From assembly GCA_044220955.1 (NCBI GenBank), contig JBGAQA010000082.1:1-32282 (forward strand): 32,282 bases of DNA, given 5' to 3'. The notes beneath the pieces are model-generated. The model ran no database searches, was not told the origin of the DNA, and saw only the letters and a list, made by a program, of their open reading frames with translations. This document shows positions 5,464 to 26,357 of the stretch, piece by piece (position 1 is the stretch's first letter; each line of letters begins with the position of its first letter). Both the position numbers and the translations under genes were made by a program. This DNA is from Sandaracinaceae bacterium (GTDB taxonomy: Bacteria > Myxococcota_A > Polyangia > Polyangiales > Sandaracinaceae).

Positions 5464-6522
5464 CTAGCGCGTCGCCGGTGGCCGGGCGAGCGCGGGGTCT
5501 CCGAGGCCGGCGTGGAACGCGCGCATGCGCGCCAGGATCCGCGGGAGCGAGAGCGGGAAGGTCATGTGCCCGCCGGGGATCCACTCGATCGGCGGCCGGC
5601 CCCACTCCTCCCACTGCTGCTTCACGAGATCGGCCGTGATGTAGACGTCGTCGGTCGCCTCGACCCAGAGCTGCCTCGCGGGCGCGAGGCGCGGCTTCAT
5701 CGTCCCGAGCCCGAGCCGGCGGAAGAGCGTCTGGCGCGCGGCGCGATCGATCCCGAAGCCCTCGAGGTCGGACTTCATGCGCCACAGGATGGGCGCCTCC
5801 TCGACGGCCTCGCCGAGCTTGAGGTGTCCGATGATGGGCACGATGTAGTCGGGCGTCGGCTCCACGCACGCGAGCGCCATCGTGAGCCCCCCGCCGAGGC
5901 TGATGCCGGTGACGCCGAGCTGCTCGTAGCCGTGCTCCGCCCGCAGCCACGCCATGAGCGTGCGGACGTCGATGACCGACTGCCGCACCGACTCGACGGT
6001 GCGCACGAGGTCGGCGCTCCAGAAGAACTCGCCGTGGAAGAGCGCGCTGCGCGGGTTCCGGCTCCCGTGGAAGGGCAGCTGGATGTGCAGCACGTCCACG
6101 CCGAGCTCGTCGTGCAGGCGGGGCAAGAGGAGCGCCTCCTCGATGCCGGGCCCGGGCTCGAGCCAGCCGTGCACGTAGATCAGCGCGCGCTTGCGGGGCC
6201 CCGAGCGCGGGTGGATCCAGCGCGCCGTCACGCGCTGGTTCAGCCAGTACTCCCCGGCGTGGCGCGCGCGGTAGTGCGGGCAGAGCACGACGTGCTGGCT
6301 GTGCCAGCGCAGCGTCTCGATGACGCGCGGCCCGAGCGCGAGGCGCGGCTTCTTGCGCACGACGTCGCGCGGGACGACCGGCGTCGGGAAGAGCGTCTCG
6401 ATCGGAGCGTCGAGATAGGGCCCGAGGTCGTCCACGGTGTTGACGTGGGCGCCACGGAGCCCGTGCAGGAGGTGGGAGCCGGCGCCCACGACGCGATCGA
6501 CCGCTTCGCCGAAGGAGAGCAT
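5464..6522 (-). CDS. Alpha/beta hydrolase (ABHD18/DUF2048-like)
   Basis: ATG at 6522; oxyanion HGW, LPFHGSR, nucleophile GISLGG, acid DDVY, catalytic GGH. Confidence 0.85.
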   Translation of the reverse strand: MLSFGEAVDRVVGAGSHLLHGLRGAHVNTVDDLGPYLDAPIETLFPTPVVPRDVVRKKPRLALGPRVIETLRWHSQHVVLCPHYRARHAGEYWLNQRVTARWIHPRSGPRKRALIYVHGWLEPGPGIEEALLLPRLHDELGVDVLHIQLPFHGSRNPRSALFHGEFFWSADLVRTVESVRQSVIDVRTLMAWLRAEHGYEQLGVTGISLGGGLTMALACVEPTPDYIVPIIGHLKLGEAVEEAPILWRMKSDLEGFGIDRAARQTLFRRLGLGTMKPRLAPARQLWVEATDDVYITADLVKQQWEEWGRPPIEWIPGGHMTFPLSLPRILARMRAFHAGLGDPALARPPATR

Positions 6523-6582
6523 GCGGCTCGTTGTATCACCGAGGACGATCCGTGCGCGTCCGGACCGTCGAGCGCGCTGGGC

Positions 6583-6738
6583 GAGGGCGAGATCGAGGGC
6601 GAGATCGAAGGCGAGATCGAGATCGAGAGCGAGAGCGAGAGCGAGAGCGAGGGCGAGGGCGAGGGCGAGGGCGAGGCGAGGGCGAGGGCGAGGGCGAGGG
6701 CGAGGGCGAGGGCGAGGGCGAGGGCGAGGGGCGAGCTC
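6583..6738 (+). repeat. Tandem hexamer array (GAGNNC)n, ~25 units, left flank of the four-helix-bundle cassette
   Basis: Blocks of GAGGGC/GAGATC, then GAGAGC x4, GAGGGC x4, a 5-nt slip unit GAGGC, and GAGGGC x8. Confidence 0.95.
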
Positions 6739-6762
6739 CGAGGTCGCATCGGGGTGGGCGCT

Positions 6763-6955
6763 CTGCTCGGGGGTCCTCATCGTGCCCGCGGGCTTGTCGC
6801 GTTCAACCCCGCGCCTGCGGCGCGCCGGTGCTCGCTTCCTCCGGCTCCGCATTCGCGGAGCCTCCGTGCAGCTCCGCTCCGGAGCGACTGCATTCGCAGT
6901 CGCTGGGTTGAGCGCGCCTGCGACCCGCGGGCGGGAAGGGCTGTGCCCCGAGCAG
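6763..6955 (+). ncRNA. Putative structured leader element A (multi-stem; RNA or ssDNA) upstream of a four-helix-bundle gene
   Basis: Stems 6763-6772/6946-6955, 6784-6791/6925-6932, 6798-6809/6905-6916; hairpins 6811-6823, 6843-6862, 6883-6904; same architecture as 7675-7895 with compensatory changes. Confidence 0.6.
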
Positions 6956-6982
6956 GTCGGGGCACCAGCCAGGAGAAGCTCC

Positions 6983-7297
6983 GTGTTGAACATCTATCTC
7001 GTCTCGATTCAGCTCTGCCGCGATGTCCGGGTGATCGGTGAGCACGTCGGGCGCCACGACCGGAACCTGCTCGACCAGCTGCGGCGGGCGGTGACCAGCG
7101 TGCCGCTCAACCTCGCGGAGAGCGACGGCGTGCAGGGCGGCAACCGTCGGCAGCGGCGGCTGACGGCGCTCGGCTCAGCCAAGGAAGTTGGCGCGTGTCT
7201 CGACGTGGCGGAGGCGCTCGGGTACGCGGCGGTGGATCGGACCGTCCGAGAGCGACTGGACCACGTCATCGGCGTGCTCGTGAAGCTGACGCGCTGA
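6983..7297 (+). CDS. Four helix bundle protein (TIGR02436 / 23S rRNA IVS / Avd-like), 104 aa
   Basis: AGGAG RBS at 6971-6975, GTG start; signature DQLRRAVTSVPLNLAE...TALGSAKEV...LDVAEALGY. Confidence 0.9.
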   Translation: MLNIYLVSIQLCRDVRVIGEHVGRHDRNLLDQLRRAVTSVPLNLAESDGVQGGNRRQRRLTALGSAKEVGACLDVAEALGYAAVDRTVRERLDHVIGVLVKLTR

Positions 7298-7304
7298 GAG
7301 ATCA

Positions 7305-7336
7305 CCGAGGCCCGCGGCGACAATCACGGGCCTCGG
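7305..7336. terminator. GC-rich hairpin between convergent four-helix-bundle genes (possible bidirectional terminator or processing site)
   Basis: CCGAGGCCCG (7305-7314) is the perfect reverse complement of CGGGCCTCGG (7327-7336); no U-tract on either side. Confidence 0.5.
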
Positions 7337-7342
7337 CCCTGC

Positions 7343-7657
7343 CTACACGAGCTTGTGCAGCGTCCGCGCGATCCGATCGAGCGCGTCGACCTGCCTCGCG
7401 TCCGCGCTCACGTATCCCATCGCGTCCGCGGTCTCGAGGATGGCGCGGACCTCGTTCGCGCTCCCCATCGCGGTCTCGAACCTCGCGCGCGCGTTCCCGT
7501 TCCGCCGCCACTCCCCTTCCGCGATGTTGAGCGGCACGCTGGTCAGCGCCCGCCGCAGCTGCTTGCCGAGGTCTGCGTCGTGCTGCGCGATCTTGGTGAC
7601 GACGTCGCGCATCTCTCGCGTGATCTGGAGTGCGTCCTTGTAGATGTGCAGGCCCAT
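7343..7657 (-). CDS. Four helix bundle protein (TIGR02436 / 23S rRNA IVS / Avd-like), 104 aa
   Basis: ATG at 7657 with GGAG upstream; signature KQLRRALTSVPLNIAEG...RFETAMGSANEV...LETADAMGY. Confidence 0.92.
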   Translation of the reverse strand: MGLHIYKDALQITREMRDVVTKIAQHDADLGKQLRRALTSVPLNIAEGEWRRNGNARARFETAMGSANEVRAILETADAMGYVSADARQVDALDRIARTLHKLV

Positions 7658-7674
7658 GTTCCGTTCTCCGTTCT

Positions 7675-7895
7675 GCCCGCTCGGGGCACAGCCCCACCTC
7701 CGTCGCGCGCAGCGGCAGTCCACCCTCGGTCCGCGGAGGCGGACCGACGCGAGCGGAGCACCCCGGAGCCACGGCGAGACGTACTTCTCGCCATTCCGGT
7801 GCCCTGGCGAGGAGTGCGAGCACGCGCGCTTCGCGCAGCGAAGCGGGGTGGACGGCCGCGAGCACGACGGCACCATTCTCCAACCCCGAGCGGGC
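7675..7895 (-). ncRNA. Putative structured leader element B, homologous to element A
   Basis: Outer 12-bp stem 7884-7895/7675-7686, GTCCACCC/GGGTGGAC stem (7846-7853/7718-7725) and three internal hairpins; shares motifs GTGCTCGC, GCTCCGCTC and GGGCTGTGCCCCGAGC with element A. Confidence 0.6.
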
Positions 7896-7955
7896 CACCG
7901 GATTTCTCGTCCTCATTCGAGCGGCGAGTCCGGCCGAAGGCCGGAGAGCCCGAGA

Positions 7956-8086
7956 GAGAGCGAGGTCGAGAGCGAGGTCGAGAGCGAGGTCGAGAGCGAG
8001 GTCGAGAGCGAGGTCGAGAGCGAGGTCGAGAGCGAGGTCGAGAGCGAGGTCGAGAGCGAGGTCGAGGTCGAGGTCGAGGTCGAGGC
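7956..8086 (+). repeat. Tandem array (GAGAGCGAGGTC)x9 + (GAGGTC)x3, right flank of the four-helix-bundle cassette
   Basis: Perfect dodecamer higher-order repeat of two GAGNNC hexamers, read directly from the sequence. Confidence 0.97.
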
Positions 8087-8100
8087 GAGCGCGGAGCCCC

Positions 8101-8643
8101 TCAGTGCACCACGTGCTCGTGCACGCTCGCGCCGCCCTCGACGGCCGTGCCGTAGATGTCCGCGAAGCGGAGCGAGCCCGGGCTCTCGCCGAGCGTGAGG
8201 TGCACGTGATCGAGGTACGCGTCGGTCCCCGCGATCGTCAGCGTCGCGCGCGCGGTACAGCCGTGCGGCGCGCGCGCCGTGTGCACCTCCAGGTGTCGCG
8301 ACGAGAGCGCGCGGATCTGGATCAGCATGGTCATGCCGTCCTCTCGCGTCTCGGTGACGCGCTGCGAGCCGACGCCGTATACCGGCCCCTCGAACATGTT
8401 GAGGCCGTGCGTGACGCGGCCGTCCGCGCCGTTCTCGAACTCGCGCCAGTACACCTCCATCGGCGAGCCGCTCGCGGGGTGACAGCTGGTGTCGAGGTGG
8501 ATGCCGTAGTCGACGCGGTTGCGGTCGTCGCTCTTGTCGATGAAGAAGATCGTCGGCACGTCGTGCCGCTCGAACTGCACGTCGGCGCGCGCGATGCCCA
8601 CGACGCCGAGCACGACGAGCGCGATCGTCGTAGCGCGCCTCAT
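8101..8643 (-). CDS. DUF4833-like secreted protein
   Basis: ATG at 8643 overlaps the upstream stop; signal peptide; IFFIDKSDDRNRVDYGIHLD...VYWR...LNMFEGPVYGV pattern. Confidence 0.75.
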   Translation of the reverse strand: MRRATTIALVVLGVVGIARADVQFERHDVPTIFFIDKSDDRNRVDYGIHLDTSCHPASGSPMEVYWREFENGADGRVTHGLNMFEGPVYGVGSQRVTETREDGMTMLIQIRALSSRHLEVHTARAPHGCTARATLTIAGTDAYLDHVHLTLGESPGSLRFADIYGTAVEGGASVHEHVVH

Positions 8644-9146
8644 GGCCGGGTCACCTCGGGCGGTCGGGACCCGTCCAGCGTGCACTCTTCGAAGGCCTCG
8701 CACTCGTCGAGGTTCTCGCCGTAGGGCCCGCCGTCGCAGGGGTGCTCGACCATCGCGAGGCGGCAGGCGACCATCTCGCCGAGCGAGATCGTGCACGGCA
8801 GGCTGCGGGCCGCGGCGGACCAGGCGTCCGGGACGCAGTGGTGCTCGACCACCGCGGCCGTCGACCCATCGGGGCAGCTCGCCGTCGAGCCTTCGAGGTG
8901 CACGTTCCGGTCGAGATACGGACAGAGCGAGACGAAGTCGTCCGGCGTGAGAGCGGCGACCGGCGTCGCCCAGGGCTGCGGCGGCGCCGGGAGCGGGCCG
9001 AGGCGAGCGTGCACCGCCGCGCTGCCCGGCAACGCGGCCTCGGTGCTCGTGGGCGTCGTCTCGTCGGACGGAGGCGGCTCGGAGTGCGCGCACGCGACGA
9101 AGAGGAGCGTGGCGCCGAGGGCGGGAACGCGGTGCGTCGGGCGCAT
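8640..9146 (-). CDS. Cys-rich lipoprotein, hypothetical
   Basis: Lipobox FVAC, 8 further Cys; tightly packed between neighbouring genes. Confidence 0.75.
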   Translation of the reverse strand: MRPTHRVPALGATLLFVACAHSEPPPSDETTPTSTEAALPGSAAVHARLGPLPAPPQPWATPVAALTPDDFVSLCPYLDRNVHLEGSTASCPDGSTAAVVEHHCVPDAWSAAARSLPCTISLGEMVACRLAMVEHPCDGGPYGENLDECEAFEECTLDGSRPPEVTRP

Positions 9147-9147
9147 C

Positions 9148-10305
9148 TCAGCCCGCGTCGGCGGCGAACGTGGGGCGGCTCGTGTAGCGCGCGAGGTGGT
9201 GCTCCTCGTCGCCGTAGCTCGCGTTGAGCACGCTCATGCGCTTGAAGTAGAGGCCCACGTCGTGCTCGTCGGTGATGCCGATCCCGCCGTGGAGCTGCAC
9301 GGCCTGCTGCACGACGAACTTGCCGCCGACGGCGAGCTGCGCCTTCGCGATCGAGATCGCGCGCCTGCGCTCCTCGACGTCGGGCTCGTCGGCGCGCACG
9401 GCCGCGAGGATGCACGTGCTCTTGAGCAGCTCGACCTCGACGAACATGTCGACCGCGCGGTGCTGCAGCGCCTGGAAGCTGCCGATGGGCACGCCGAACT
9501 GCTTGCGCGTCTTGAGGTAGGCGACCGTCATGTCGAGCACGGTGCTCGCGATGCCGAGGCCCTCGGCGCACGCCGCGGCAGCCCCGAGATCGAGCGCCGC
9601 GTCGAGCGCCTGCGCGGCCTTCTCGCCCGGCTCGCCGAGCAGGGCATCGGCGCCGACCTGGCAGCCCTCGAGCTTCACCATCGCCGCCGCGCGTCCGTCC
9701 ATCGTCTTGATGCGCTGCACGCTCAGGCCCGTCGTGCCCCTCGGCACGGCGAAGAGCGCCAGCCCCGCGTCCGTCTTGGCCGACACGACGAGCACGTCGG
9801 CTGCGTGGCCGTTCTCGACGAAGATCTTCTCGCCCGTGATCGCGAAGCCGCTCCCCGTCTTCTTGGCCGTCGTCGTCACGGCCCGCACGTCGTAGCGGCC
9901 CGCGCGCTCGGTCCACGCGAGCGCGAGGCTCGTCCTTCCCTCGATCATCGGCTCGAGGATCGCCTTCTGCTGCGCCGCGGATCCGGCCCGCAGCACGGCG
10001 CTTCCCGCGACGACCGCCGACGCGATCAGCGGCTCCGGCGTCAGCGTGGTGCCGAGCTTCTCGATCACGAGCGCGAGGTCTTGGAAGCGCATGCCCATGC
10101 CGCCCACGCTCTCGGGGTAGGCGAGGCCGAGCCAGCCGAGGCCGCCCATCTCCTTCCACACCTTGGTCTCCCAGCCGTGCTCGACCACGTCGCGCTCGGC
10201 GGTGCTGCGGAGCTTGCGGAAGCGCTCCACGGGGGAGCTCTTCTTGGCGAAGCTCGCGGCCTGCTCGGCCAGCATCTTCTGTTCGGCGGTCAGCTCGAAG
10301 TCCAT
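9148..10305 (-). CDS. Acyl-CoA dehydrogenase family protein (PimD-like, probably non-catalytic subunit)
   Basis: MDFELTAEQ start, RKQFGVPIGSFQALQHR, AVQLHGGIGITDE; C-terminal YGDEEHH lacks the YxGxxE motif. Confidence 0.93.
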   Translation of the reverse strand: MDFELTAEQKMLAEQAASFAKKSSPVERFRKLRSTAERDVVEHGWETKVWKEMGGLGWLGLAYPESVGGMGMRFQDLALVIEKLGTTLTPEPLIASAVVAGSAVLRAGSAAQQKAILEPMIEGRTSLALAWTERAGRYDVRAVTTTAKKTGSGFAITGEKIFVENGHAADVLVVSAKTDAGLALFAVPRGTTGLSVQRIKTMDGRAAAMVKLEGCQVGADALLGEPGEKAAQALDAALDLGAAAACAEGLGIASTVLDMTVAYLKTRKQFGVPIGSFQALQHRAVDMFVEVELLKSTCILAAVRADEPDVEERRRAISIAKAQLAVGGKFVVQQAVQLHGGIGITDEHDVGLYFKRMSVLNASYGDEEHHLARYTSRPTFAADAG

Positions 10306-24795: not shown

Positions 24796-25743
24796 TCAGA
24801 GCGGGCGCGTGAGCACGCTGCCGAGGCCGGCGCCGGCCACGAGGTGCGTGCGGGTCGCGCACGCGCCGACGATCTCTCTCTGATCGCCCTCGCCGAAGTC
24901 GTACGAGGTGAGCGCGCTCTGCCAGGTGCCGTCGGCGCGCTCGAAGACGCCCACGCTCGTCGCCGCCCAGACGCGGCCGCCCTGCGCGCTGACCTGGCGG
25001 AGCTCGTCGCCGAGCGGCGGCGGGATGGCGATCCACTCACGACCGTTCCAGCGCAGGACGATCGGCGTCGCGCCGCGCGCGGACCACGCCCACACCTCCG
25101 ACGCGCTCACGGCGAAGAGGCCTCCGAGCGTGACGTCGGTGCCGCTCGCGCTGCGCGCCCAGGCGCGTCCGTCCCAGTGCATCAGCGTGCCGCCCTGGCC
25201 CGCGGTCCAGAGATCGCCCGGGCCGGTGCCGGCGACGGCCGAGAGGTCGCGCCAGGTGCCGGCGTCGTACGTGCGCAGGTCCGTTCCATCGCGGCGCGCG
25301 ATCCAGCCGCGCCCCACGGCGTACACGTCCGCACCGACCGACGCGAGGCCGCCGAAGGGATCATAGCGACCGGCCGACGCACGCGTCGCGATCGACCACG
25401 CGCTGCCGTCCCAGCTCGCGACGCGTCCGCTCGCCTCGACGAGCACGCCGGTGGGCGTCGCCTCGAGGTGCGTGCCGTACGTGCGGCCCTCGCCGTAGCC
25501 GGGGATCTCCGGGAGCTCGTGCCACGCGCTGCCGTCCCACTCGGCGACCCCGCCGCCCCAGCCGCGCGCGTAGGCGCGATCGGCGGAGCAGGCGACGGCG
25601 TTCACGTCGGTGAGGCGGCGCAGGCGCGAGGTGAGCGACCAGCCGTTCGAGAGCGCGATGGTCTCGCCCTGGGCGAGAGCGAGGGCGGGAGCGAGAGCGA
25701 GAGCGAGAGCGAGAGCGAGAGCGGGTGCGAGAGCGCGGGTCAT
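24796..25743 (-). CDS. Secreted beta-propeller repeat protein (WDGxxW repeats)
   Basis: ATGA overlap; (AL)n signal peptide encoded by hexamer repeats; repeats WDGSAW x2, WDGRAW, WNGREW. Confidence 0.82.
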   Translation of the reverse strand: MTRALAPALALALALALAPALALAQGETIALSNGWSLTSRLRRLTDVNAVACSADRAYARGWGGGVAEWDGSAWHELPEIPGYGEGRTYGTHLEATPTGVLVEASGRVASWDGSAWSIATRASAGRYDPFGGLASVGADVYAVGRGWIARRDGTDLRTYDAGTWRDLSAVAGTGPGDLWTAGQGGTLMHWDGRAWARSASGTDVTLGGLFAVSASEVWAWSARGATPIVLRWNGREWIAIPPPLGDELRQVSAQGGRVWAATSVGVFERADGTWQSALTSYDFGEGDQREIVGACATRTHLVAGAGLGSVLTRPL

Positions 25744-25926
25744 CGGCGCCTCCGCGTGATCGCGAGGGCCGCGAGGGCGAGGGCGAGGGCGAGGGCGGGC
25801 GTGGTCGGACCGGCGCCAGCGGCGGCACAGCTGCACGAGGGCGAGGGCGAGGTCGAGGTCGAGGTCGAGGTCGAGGTCGAGGTCGAGGTCGAGCGCGAGG
25901 GCGAGGGCGAGGGCGAGGGCGAGGGC
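25675..25926 (+). repeat. Three intragenic GAGNNC hexamer runs (25675-25734, 25773-25796, 25837-25926)
   Basis: GAGAGC/GAGGGC/GAGGTC units, read on the minus strand as (Ala-Leu)n, (Ser-Pro)n and (Thr-Ser)n. Confidence 0.92.
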
Positions 25927-26357
25927 GAGCCCGTCGGCAGGCTCGGAAGTTCATCGGGGACGCAGAAGCTCGCCTCGCGGCAGCTCGGATCGCCCGTCAG
26001 CGTCCCGGCCGTGGGCGGCGGCGGCTCCTCGTCGCCGCGGCACGCGGCTGCCGGCTCGCAGCTCCCGACGACCACATCGACCTCGTCGGGCGAGGGCGGC
26101 GGATCGCGGAATTGCCCGAGGCCGCCCGGCGGGATGCTCGCGCGCCGGGTGCACACGCGGTACGCGCGGCAGTGGCCGCCGGTGCTCGCGCAGTCCGCGT
26201 CGCTCGCGCACACGGCCGGCTCGCACCACTGTCCCGAGTGCGACGAGCGCCCGACGGCGCCGGGCGGGCAGGCCGGCGGGCCGTCGATCGCATCGGCGCG
26301 GGCCGCGAGCGGCGAGACCGTGAACAGCAGGACGAGCAGTGTTGCGGCGCGCTTCAT
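25740..26357 (-). CDS. Cys-rich surface protein with MYXO-CTERM sorting signal
   Basis: Signal peptide MKRAATLLVLL...ARA; Cys-rich domain; S/P/T linker; SCSCAAAG + hydrophobic helix + RRRR. Confidence 0.85.
   Translation of the reverse strand: MKRAATLLVLLFTVSPLAARADAIDGPPACPPGAVGRSSHSGQWCEPAVCASDADCASTGGHCRAYRVCTRRASIPPGGLGQFRDPPPSPDEVDVVVGSCEPAAACRGDEEPPPPTAGTLTGDPSCREASFCVPDELPSLPTGSPSPSPSPSPSRSTSTSTSTSTSTSTSPSPSCSCAAAGAGPTTPALALALALAALAITRRRR

Follow-up and report, generated by a model that had tools for sequence, protein, structure and literature searches.

The window analyzed here is a stretch of 32,282 nucleotides (nt) from a Sandaracinaceae bacterium (GenBank assembly GCA_044220955.1, contig JBGAQA010000082.1, positions 1–32,282 of the forward strand) and is contig C282 of a draft genome of 7.5 Mb with 73% G+C. 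Two convergent genes in this window, gene A at 6983..7297 on the plus strand and gene B at 7343..7657 on the minus strand, each encode a four-helix-bundle protein of 104 amino acids (aa), of a family to which we take Avd to belong. Each gene is preceded by a noncoding imperfect inverted repeat, with the core of element A at 6785..6931 on the plus strand and that of element B at 7700..7870 on the minus strand. The element is a real, covarying structure. It may well be a strand-asymmetric hairpin module whose working form is folded template-strand (antisense) DNA, with a promoter that exists in the hairpin form only; this reading is the one tentatively favored here. It is also quite possible, and is proposed with somewhat more reserve, that the element is a chromosomal, multi-copy single-strand promoter and that its Avd-like gene would be on only when the template strand is exposed or extruded.

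Relatives were sought by scanning one genome per species; 98 were found and 80 loci were kept. Their labels are nearly all those of Polyangia-type Myxococcota, with two Acidobacteria. A covariance model constructed from 27 cores, with the outer 25-base-pair (bp) helix as its sole structure, matched 139 places on both strands of 88 sources. Collapsing them left 85 places with 81 unique sequences, from which 55 representatives were drawn (less than 60% of 8-mers shared). In the MAFFT seed alignment 92.3% of the cells of the outer helix are paired and 20 of its 25 pairs have changed on both sides; none of 500 shuffles was as high on any of four measures. The stem displays an almost invariant GTCAAGG/CCTTGAC and the motif GTGCTCGG facing CCTGCGCGC, and it encloses two or three hairpins. 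The stems of these hairpins vary freely among paralogues and the junction sequences are fixed.

A four-helix-bundle gene starts 31–86 nt downstream of the element, on the same strand, in 79 of the 81 unique instances, and one of the two remaining instances has just 66 nt of room. In the genome of the window all nine model matches precede four-helix-bundle genes on the same strand (150 of about 31,000 first-look candidates were scored). In a class sample, 4 of 151 genomes have a match at E ≤ 1e-4 under strict filters. Two copies are carried by Labilithrix luteola DSM 27648, which can be cultivated.

The original prediction, made from the letters of the window alone, was that the element may act as a single-stranded DNA, cruciform or complementary DNA (cDNA) signal, and it rested on hairpin loops that on the antisense strand read GCA in both copies, GAAT twice in A and GGAG in B, on the heptamer GCGGAGC and on an extra hairpin at 7929–7945. 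All of these are present as described, although the list was selective: it omits what does not fit, namely the GCAGG loop of the hairpin in the A spacer (6943–6965), the TGT loop of the B spacer and the middle arm of B, which is irregular. A tally across the homologues shows that the bias it proposed holds. Minimum-free-energy folds of the 55 representatives contain 88 hairpins with stems of at least 4 bp, among them 38 triloops and 37 tetraloops. Thirty of the 38 triloops are c-UNC-g on the sense strand, i.e. c-GNA-g on the antisense strand (UUC 21, UGC 6, UAC 2, UCC 1), and a single one is GNA on the sense strand. Among the tetraloops, 14 of 37 are GNAB (7) or GNNA (7) on the antisense strand and four are GNNA on the sense strand. 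The class d(cGNABg) was reportedly described by Nakano et al. in 2002.

The mini-hairpin motif GCGNAGC is found 94 times on the antisense strand of the 55 representatives (6.1 kb) and eight times on the sense strand, that is 15.5 vs 1.3 per kb. By comparison, the genome as a whole has a background of 1.35 per kb on each strand, and a first-order Markov model predicts 22.8 and 11.9 copies where 94 and 8 are observed. Two or three Watson-Crick pairs surround the central UNC in 66 of the 94 copies, and the copies with short stems sit in conserved junction motifs such as GGTGCTNCGC, in which N is variable. There is no comparable excess in the adjacent coding regions (19 antisense and 11 sense in 19 kb) or in leaders of relatives without the element (6 antisense and 1 sense in 3.5 kb). 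Nine new unique cores from three further genomes, all out-of-sample, show 17 antisense vs 0 sense copies; the two cores of the window alone have six vs two, which is a small count. In a genome-wide census of hairpins, stems of 5 bp were swamped by chance and those of at least 7 bp were used as background only; there c-GAA-g/c-TTC-g makes up 41 of 2133.

The DNA hairpin d(GCGAAGC) melts at 76.5 °C and is nuclease-resistant, whereas an RNA counterpart, r(GCGAAAGC), is much weaker and melts at 39 °C, and hairpins with a TTC loop are not nuclease-resistant (PMC13037366, partial text). Motifs of the GCGNAGC type are known at the G4 origin, ssiA and N4 promoters (PMC13037366, partial text), and a C:G closing pair stabilizes d(GNA) loops (PMC3201870, partial text).

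Promoter-like boxes are also confined to one strand. They lie on the antisense arm that is distal to the gene. In element A a -35-like hexamer, TTGAAC, is inside the stem at 6801..6806 of the minus strand, 16 nt before a -10-like hexamer, CACGAT, at 6779..6784 of the same strand and just outside the stem. Element B has TGGACG inside the stem at 7849..7854 of the plus strand and CACCAT at 7871..7876 of the plus strand, which forms the first 6 nt of an unpaired 13-nt stretch (7871–7883). TTGACN in the stem, a distance of 15–18 nt and nAnnnT just outside are found in 48 of the 51 representatives with enough flank, and the mirror place on the sense strand carries such boxes in one of 51. The distance between boxes is 16 nt in 38 cases, 17 in six, 15 in three and 18 in one. 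The second base of the -10-like hexamers is A and the sixth is T, e.g. CACGAT, CACGCT, TACGCT and GACAAT. Eight of the nine out-of-sample cores have boxes, five found by script and three read by eye (TTTACA with TACGAT, TACCCT or TACCAT), and one is without them. On the sense strand there are no conserved A/T positions within 66 nt upstream and thus no conserved promoter there; sigma-54 and sense-strand -10 readings near the spacer, made by eye, gave no match. The strand statistics (heptamer 94:8, triloops 30:1, boxes 48:1) call for an explanation beyond a plain RNA model.

Predicted antisense DNA folds of 48 representatives have at least four of the six bases of the -35 box paired in all 48 and five or six paired in 42. 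The antisense DNA fold of B consists of the stem, then a 13 × 13 internal loop, then a 12-bp outer helix, and the first six bases of the loop on the boxed arm are the -10-like hexamer. In duplex DNA the boxes point away from the gene. In the folded antisense strand the boxed arm becomes the non-template strand of the stem and the template arm runs on into the spacer and the gene, a geometry taken from the sequence.

This suggests how such a promoter might work. Once the antisense strand is exposed in single-stranded form, or is extruded when the DNA is supercoiled, the stem would rebuild a double-stranded -35 box and spacer, and the -10 box would be located at or within an opening. RNA polymerase would then read the gene-proximal arm and continue through the spacer into the gene, and the GNA mini-hairpins may nucleate and lock the fold. 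In a convergent A/B pair either exposed strand would express one gene, or report exposure. Folding as DNA is partly supported by the triloop and heptamer biases, the one-sided boxes, the lack of a sense promoter and the constant downstream gene. It is also partly supported by the G·U counts: there is no RNA-type excess of G·U at variable positions of the element, whereas the spacer, which is transcribed in this model, shows 13 G·U vs 3 A·C among its 1 × 1 mismatches. Exposure of one strand by replication was considered as well and dropped; convergent pairs hold both orientations, and the origins of the draft genomes are unlocated.

Several observations weigh against the hairpin-form promoter. 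The -10-like hexamers are weak (CACGAT, CACCAT) and GC-rich, and a strict consensus promoter scan calls neither the boxes nor any promoter on either strand, and no terminators either. The -10 hexamer has at least four of six bases unpaired in just 23 of the 48 antisense DNA folds, and the geometry of the downstream duplex varies. The commonest tetraloop is AGGA of the sense strand (15 of 37), which fits the stable-DNA class of neither strand and is Shine-Dalgarno-like on the sense strand. Nearest-neighbor energies calculated as DNA barely split the strands, the antisense being favored by 0.8 kcal/mol (33 vs 20 of 55, p 0.045); calculated as RNA they are equal (-76.2 for both, p 0.9). In one conserved column of the outer stem, 32 of the 55 representatives have a sense-strand U·G, which corresponds to A·C in the antisense strand, 10 have U·U and 10 have Watson-Crick pairs; the conserved wobbles belong to the sense strand. 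No source of single-stranded DNA was found for these cassettes, which are scattered over a chromosome-like genome, and a search of 72,556 plasmid records with the element (blastn) and the protein (tblastn) gave no match. The promoter pattern was recognized post hoc, and the counts are not independent events because the homologues are related. Finally, the boxes face outward in the duplex and could therefore be an ordinary outward promoter.

The strongest alternative is a structured 5′ leader RNA on the sense strand of the four-helix-bundle mRNA, in which a rod-like helix closes a multi-hairpin junction. This is a realistic possibility that falls short of an even chance but is almost as probable as the DNA reading. 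Such a leader might be bound by its own protein (autoregulation), processed by RNase III, or both, with the GUGCU repeat and its U·G as the recognition site, a refinement that is possible to a like degree. Structured leader RNA is the commonest conserved structure before genes, and here the fixed place and strand, 31–86 nt ahead of the start in 79 of the 81 instances, and the strong covariation are as expected for a leader. So too are the SD-like AGGA loops and the anti-SD-like junctions on the sense strand (SD, Shine-Dalgarno). The U·G of the conserved column is part of a GUGC/GCGC motif in the outer helix and is conserved again at the foot of the first hairpin. Also consistent with RNA are three wobble pairs that work on the sense strand only, which had been pointed out beforehand as counter-evidence to a DNA form; folding without G·U finds all three, one in A and two in B.

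The mismatch counts bear on both readings. In the outer stem of the 55 representatives there are 1196 Watson-Crick pairs, 50 G·U, 26 A·C and 75 others. Without the conserved column G·U falls to 18 and A·C is 25, and the mismatches are therefore not overwhelmingly sense G·U. A strand-symmetric test, which used folds without G·U and 1 × 1 mismatches flanked by two pairs on each side, gave 60 G·U, 29 A·C and 54 others, an excess in favor of RNA, as is that of the spacer (13 vs 3). Most of these G·U fall on two conserved motif sites, and the inner mismatches (17 G·U vs 2 A·C) are at the second copy of the GUGC/GCGC motif. The stems of terminal hairpins have G·U in 22 of 604 pairs on the sense strand and 7 of 581 on the antisense strand. 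As a control, the acceptor and T stems of 42 of the 54 predicted tRNAs of the genome have 469 Watson-Crick pairs, 29 G·U (5.8%) and one A·C. The original prediction had named two outcomes that would speak against it, a lack of GNA/GNAB bias on the antisense strand and mismatches overwhelmingly of the sense G·U kind. The antisense loop bias is present and the mismatches are not overwhelmingly sense G·U, and the idea therefore survives this test, although the conserved wobbles are sense U·G.

Other features fit a leader RNA poorly. No conserved promoter is found upstream. The loops are not RNA-like, since classical RNA tetraloops are scarce on the sense strand (GNRA 3 of 37, UNCG 0 of 37) and triloops are as common as tetraloops. 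G·U in the stem is rare away from the conserved motif and at variable positions of the outer stem is not above A·C, in contrast to the tRNA stems. The element matches no Rfam family, and the heptamer bias and the antisense-only -10-like hexamer are left unexplained by a leader. Both elements are much more stably folded than shuffled sequence, as RNA (z of -5.4 for A and -4.8 for B) and as antisense DNA (-5.3 for A and -7.0 for B). Long-range pairing of the flanks by RNAduplex was also tried; shuffled controls scored almost equally (-46.8 vs -50.5) and these energies were therefore discarded.

The same boxes, read in duplex DNA, could be an ordinary double-stranded promoter in the 5′ arm that fires outward into the hexamer array and the neighboring gene, the inverted repeat being an operator, an RNA or something else. 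The A boxes do point through the left array to an alpha/beta-hydrolase (ABHD18-like) gene on the minus strand with a coding start at 6522. However, those of B run into the 3′ end of a gene that is encoded on the opposite strand, and the upstream neighbor is divergent in only 7 of 19 callable single cassettes. The covariation of the opposite arm and the mini-hairpin bias would also be unexplained, and this alternative is improbable.

A somewhat less probable proposal, and an unlikely one, is that the cassette is mobile and that the element is its site for single-strand recognition or priming, like ssi signals, IS200/IS605 ends or integron attC sites. The site would serve in copying or moving the cassette, with the four-helix-bundle protein as helper. 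The cassette is indeed a multi-copy, array-flanked unit with several copies at or near contig ends, and its antisense mini-hairpins are like those at the G4 origin and ssiA (PMC13037366, partial text). It contains no transposase, relaxase or integrase, the flanking arrays are inconsistent (inverted or direct), and the element goes with the gene in all nine matches of this genome, from the 150 scored of about 31,000 first-look candidates, and in 79 of the 81 unique instances in relatives.

The least probable alternative, and a very doubtful one, is a product like cDNA or multicopy single-stranded DNA, formed by reverse transcription of the leader RNA with an Avd-like cofactor and folding through GNA loops as antisense single-stranded DNA: the cDNA of a leader would equal the antisense strand and Avd, one member of the family, cooperates with a reverse transcriptase (PMC3240598, partial text), but the four RVT_1 matches of the genome are on contigs C290, C263, C167 and C111, none of which holds any of the 15 matches to PF05635, and no template/variable repeat pair was found in a repeat scan of 6500–8150. 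The cDNA version, or one involving a diversity-generating retroelement (DGR), is therefore unlikely. The part of the original prediction that concerned single-stranded DNA or a cruciform thus keeps its loop and heptamer bias and gains the antisense boxes, while the AGGA tetraloop and the sense U·G count against it and the cDNA part lacks a reverse transcriptase on a shared contig.

In its layout, the core of element A is a long imperfect helix, 6785–6809 paired with 6905–6931, as indicated by the covariance-model match, folds and covariation. It encloses three hairpins: HP1 at 6810–6824 with the loop TGC (6816–6818; antisense GCA), HP2 at 6843–6862 with ATTC (6851–6854; antisense GAAT) and HP3 at 6883–6904 with ATTC (6892–6895; antisense GAAT), all given on the plus strand. 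Conserved junctions are GGTGCTCGC and GCTCCGC at 6871–6877, which the minus strand reads as GCGGAGC. An outermost helix, read from the sequence, pairs the 5′ strand CTGCTCGGGG at 6763..6772 (plus strand) with CCCCGAGCAG at 6946–6955; it is part of a longer RNA fold, and a homologous helix forms in B. The A spacer at 6932..6982 (plus strand) displays a hairpin at 6943–6965 and a Shine-Dalgarno AGGAG at 6971–6975, from sequence and fold.

The core of element B is defined by a covariance-model match at 7699–7871, by folds and by alignment with A. Its long helix encloses HP1 (7828–7844), a long irregular middle arm and HP3 (7728–7745). From the sequence, the plus strand reads GCTTCGC-GCA-GCGAAGC at HP1 and GGTCCGC-GGAG-GCGGACC at HP3. 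The spacer of gene B, at 7658..7699 on the minus strand, has a Shine-Dalgarno GGAG; its positions 7675–7686 are the 3′ strand of the outermost helix in the folds and 7687–7699 form one side of the 13 × 13 internal loop. The 5′ strand of that outermost helix, GCCCGCTCGGGG on the gene strand, is at 7884..7895 (minus strand) and pairs with 7675–7686. Elements of the B type have an upstream extension, 7896..7950 on the minus strand, which is conserved among B-type paralogues. The extra hairpin TCCGGCC-GAA-GGCCGGA at 7929–7945 is inside this extension and has a triloop that is c-TTC-g on the sense strand and c-GAA-g on the antisense strand. In one paralogue (G000:C247, about 46435–46480) the third hairpin, of the B type, has an extra palindrome of approximately 40 nt, GACCAGGCCTATAGCC...GGCTATAGGCCGTGTC, which is less GC-rich and is absent from other copies.

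The two proteins share 45% identity (BLASTP) and are members of the PF05635/TIGR02436 four-helix-bundle / 23S rRNA intervening sequence (IVS) protein family, both above the curated cut-offs. Protein A matches PF05635 with an E-value of 1.5e-11 and 44.9 bits and protein B with 1.5e-16 and 61.0 bits (cut-off 33.8); matches to TIGR02436 are at 2.1e-12 and 47.2 bits for A and 6.8e-16 and 58.4 bits for B (cut-off 24). The closest solved structure for gene B is 2gsc. Proteins of PF05635 are widespread and occur in rRNA intervening sequences, as Avd in DGRs, and in many free-standing cassettes; to our knowledge they have no known function outside DGRs. Neither protein A nor B matches any defense family in PADLOC. 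The 15 matches to PF05635 in the genome are spread over at least 11 contigs, and no fewer than four loci hold convergent A/B pairs, several of them at or near contig ends. Among relatives, 21 of the 77 loci having room are convergent four-helix-bundle pairs. Crude open reading frame (ORF) calls, based on G+C at third codon positions in flanks of 430–560 nt, show that for single cassettes the downstream neighbor is convergent in 13 of 15 callable cases and the upstream neighbor has the same direction as the cassette gene in 12 of 19, the remaining seven being divergent.

Pfam names an alpha/beta hydrolase and a DUF4833 protein as neighbors in the window. If translation began at the in-frame ATG at 6781, the hydrolase would gain an odd (PR)n(LA)n N-terminus, which is probably not coding. 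Public reads include one contig of 157 nt, from an RNA library prepared with oligo-dT from a sludge metagenome, which covers gene A only (7091–7247) with one difference, A>G at 7182, and is no proof of transcription. No public read contig spans element A or B. The read contigs carry no strand and are therefore silent on the question of RNA vs DNA.

Hexamer arrays found by Tandem Repeats Finder flank the A/B pair. The left array, (GGGCGA)n, has 26 copies at 6579..6735 and the right array, (GAGAGCGAGGTC)n, has 11.6 copies at 7956..8093; both have the same polarity and are direct. Relatives also have arrays beside their cassettes, with a unit that is specific to each genome, some inverted and some direct. 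An IVS-like stem that encloses the cassette and is formed by the flanking arrays is ruled out in the window by the shared polarity and is inconsistent among relatives. In one locus (G000:C40:14780–15007) a four-helix-bundle copy retains only about the last 30 nt of the leader; a hexamer array is followed there by unrelated sequence in place of the structured element.

Hexamer arrays of the window are at 96–232, 6579–6735, 7956–8093 and 25673–25929. Genome-wide there are 280 arrays with a period of 6, 12 or 18 and a length of at least 48 bp; period-6 units are dominated by AGGGCG (67) and AGAGCG (61). Only twelve of the 280 have a four-helix-bundle gene no more than 600 bp away, and 56 come within 300 bp of the end of a contig. 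A minus-strand ORF with a GGAGG Shine-Dalgarno, from an ATG near 25743 down to about 25660, runs through one of the arrays and would translate it. Its translation, made by eye, starts MTRALAP(AL)n...ALAQGE and resembles a signal peptide encoded by (GCTCTC)n.

Comparison with known systems shows that the element is neither an rRNA intervening sequence nor a DGR and that Rfam does not contain it. A literature search (full text, with the family names and IVS/S23p, subscription journals being outside its coverage) returned titles and abstract openings that describe no such element before four-helix-bundle genes. In Rfam 15 there are only two chance-level matches, with E-values of 3.3 and 4 and far under the gathering score. 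The cassette is like the ORF-bearing 23S rRNA IVS (Coxiella burnetii S23p) in having a PF05635 protein and long stems and in being a small, selfish-looking unit. Unlike an IVS, it is not in rRNA (no rRNA match is present in 5500–9500), its stem closes upstream of the ORF and not around it, and its arrays are direct. An IVS is excised by RNase III (PMC4990558, partial text).

Targets of DGRs are GC-rich DNA hairpins or cruciforms in which the loop sequence matters (PMC3240598, partial text). The link to DGR target recognition that the original prediction drew from its GNA loops turns out to be weak. No reverse transcriptase is on the contigs of the cassettes, there is no template/variable repeat pair in 6500–8150, and DGR target hairpins have GRNA loops of 4 nt, which are on the sense strand and downstream of the gene, as far as the partial text of PMC3240598 describes them, whereas here GNA triloops are antisense and upstream.

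In its position, covariation and hairpin beside the Shine-Dalgarno the element resembles structured cis-regulatory 5′ leader RNAs. It differs from them in the lack of an Rfam match, in loops and G·U statistics that are not RNA-like and in the lack of an upstream promoter. If the RNA reading is true, the element would be a new leader motif with unusual loops.

With the d(GCGNAGC)/d(cGNAg) mini-hairpins of the G4 origin, RSF1010 ssiA and N4 early promoters the element shares the same heptamer and C:G closing pair, here with 11-fold enrichment on one strand. As described in the available parts of the sources, the known mini-hairpins are single and in phage or plasmid single-stranded DNA. Here there are one to five copies within a larger covarying fold before a cellular gene, and their stability is predicted.

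The closest functional parallel to the tentatively favored hairpin-form promoter is Frpo/ssi (F, ColIb-P9), where folding of the template strand restores -35 and -10 boxes that in duplex DNA do not serve the downstream genes (PMC9849209, PMC11541004, partial texts). As in Frpo/ssi, so far as these texts go, small genes are immediately preceded by a noncoding imperfect inverted repeat that can be folded on the template strand. Here promoter-like boxes, with weak -10 matches, are on the antisense arm distal to the gene (48 of 51). Unlike Frpo/ssi, the element is chromosomal and multi-copy, with no leading region and no match in plasmid records; its -10 is weak and GC-rich, its inner hairpins are GNA-capped and its promoter role is putative. 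Both its context and its sequence set it apart from the Frpo family, to which it does not belong.

For these proteins, a conserved cis element that goes with one subfamily supplies a concrete partner, which could be sense RNA, single-stranded DNA of the antisense strand or a hairpin promoter. Should the DNA reading be true, single-strand promoters would no longer be plasmid-only, and the element would be the first promoter of the Frpo type to occur outside conjugative plasmids. The genes would then seem to respond to exposed single-stranded DNA, which would be a first functional handle on the IVS-protein/Avd family.

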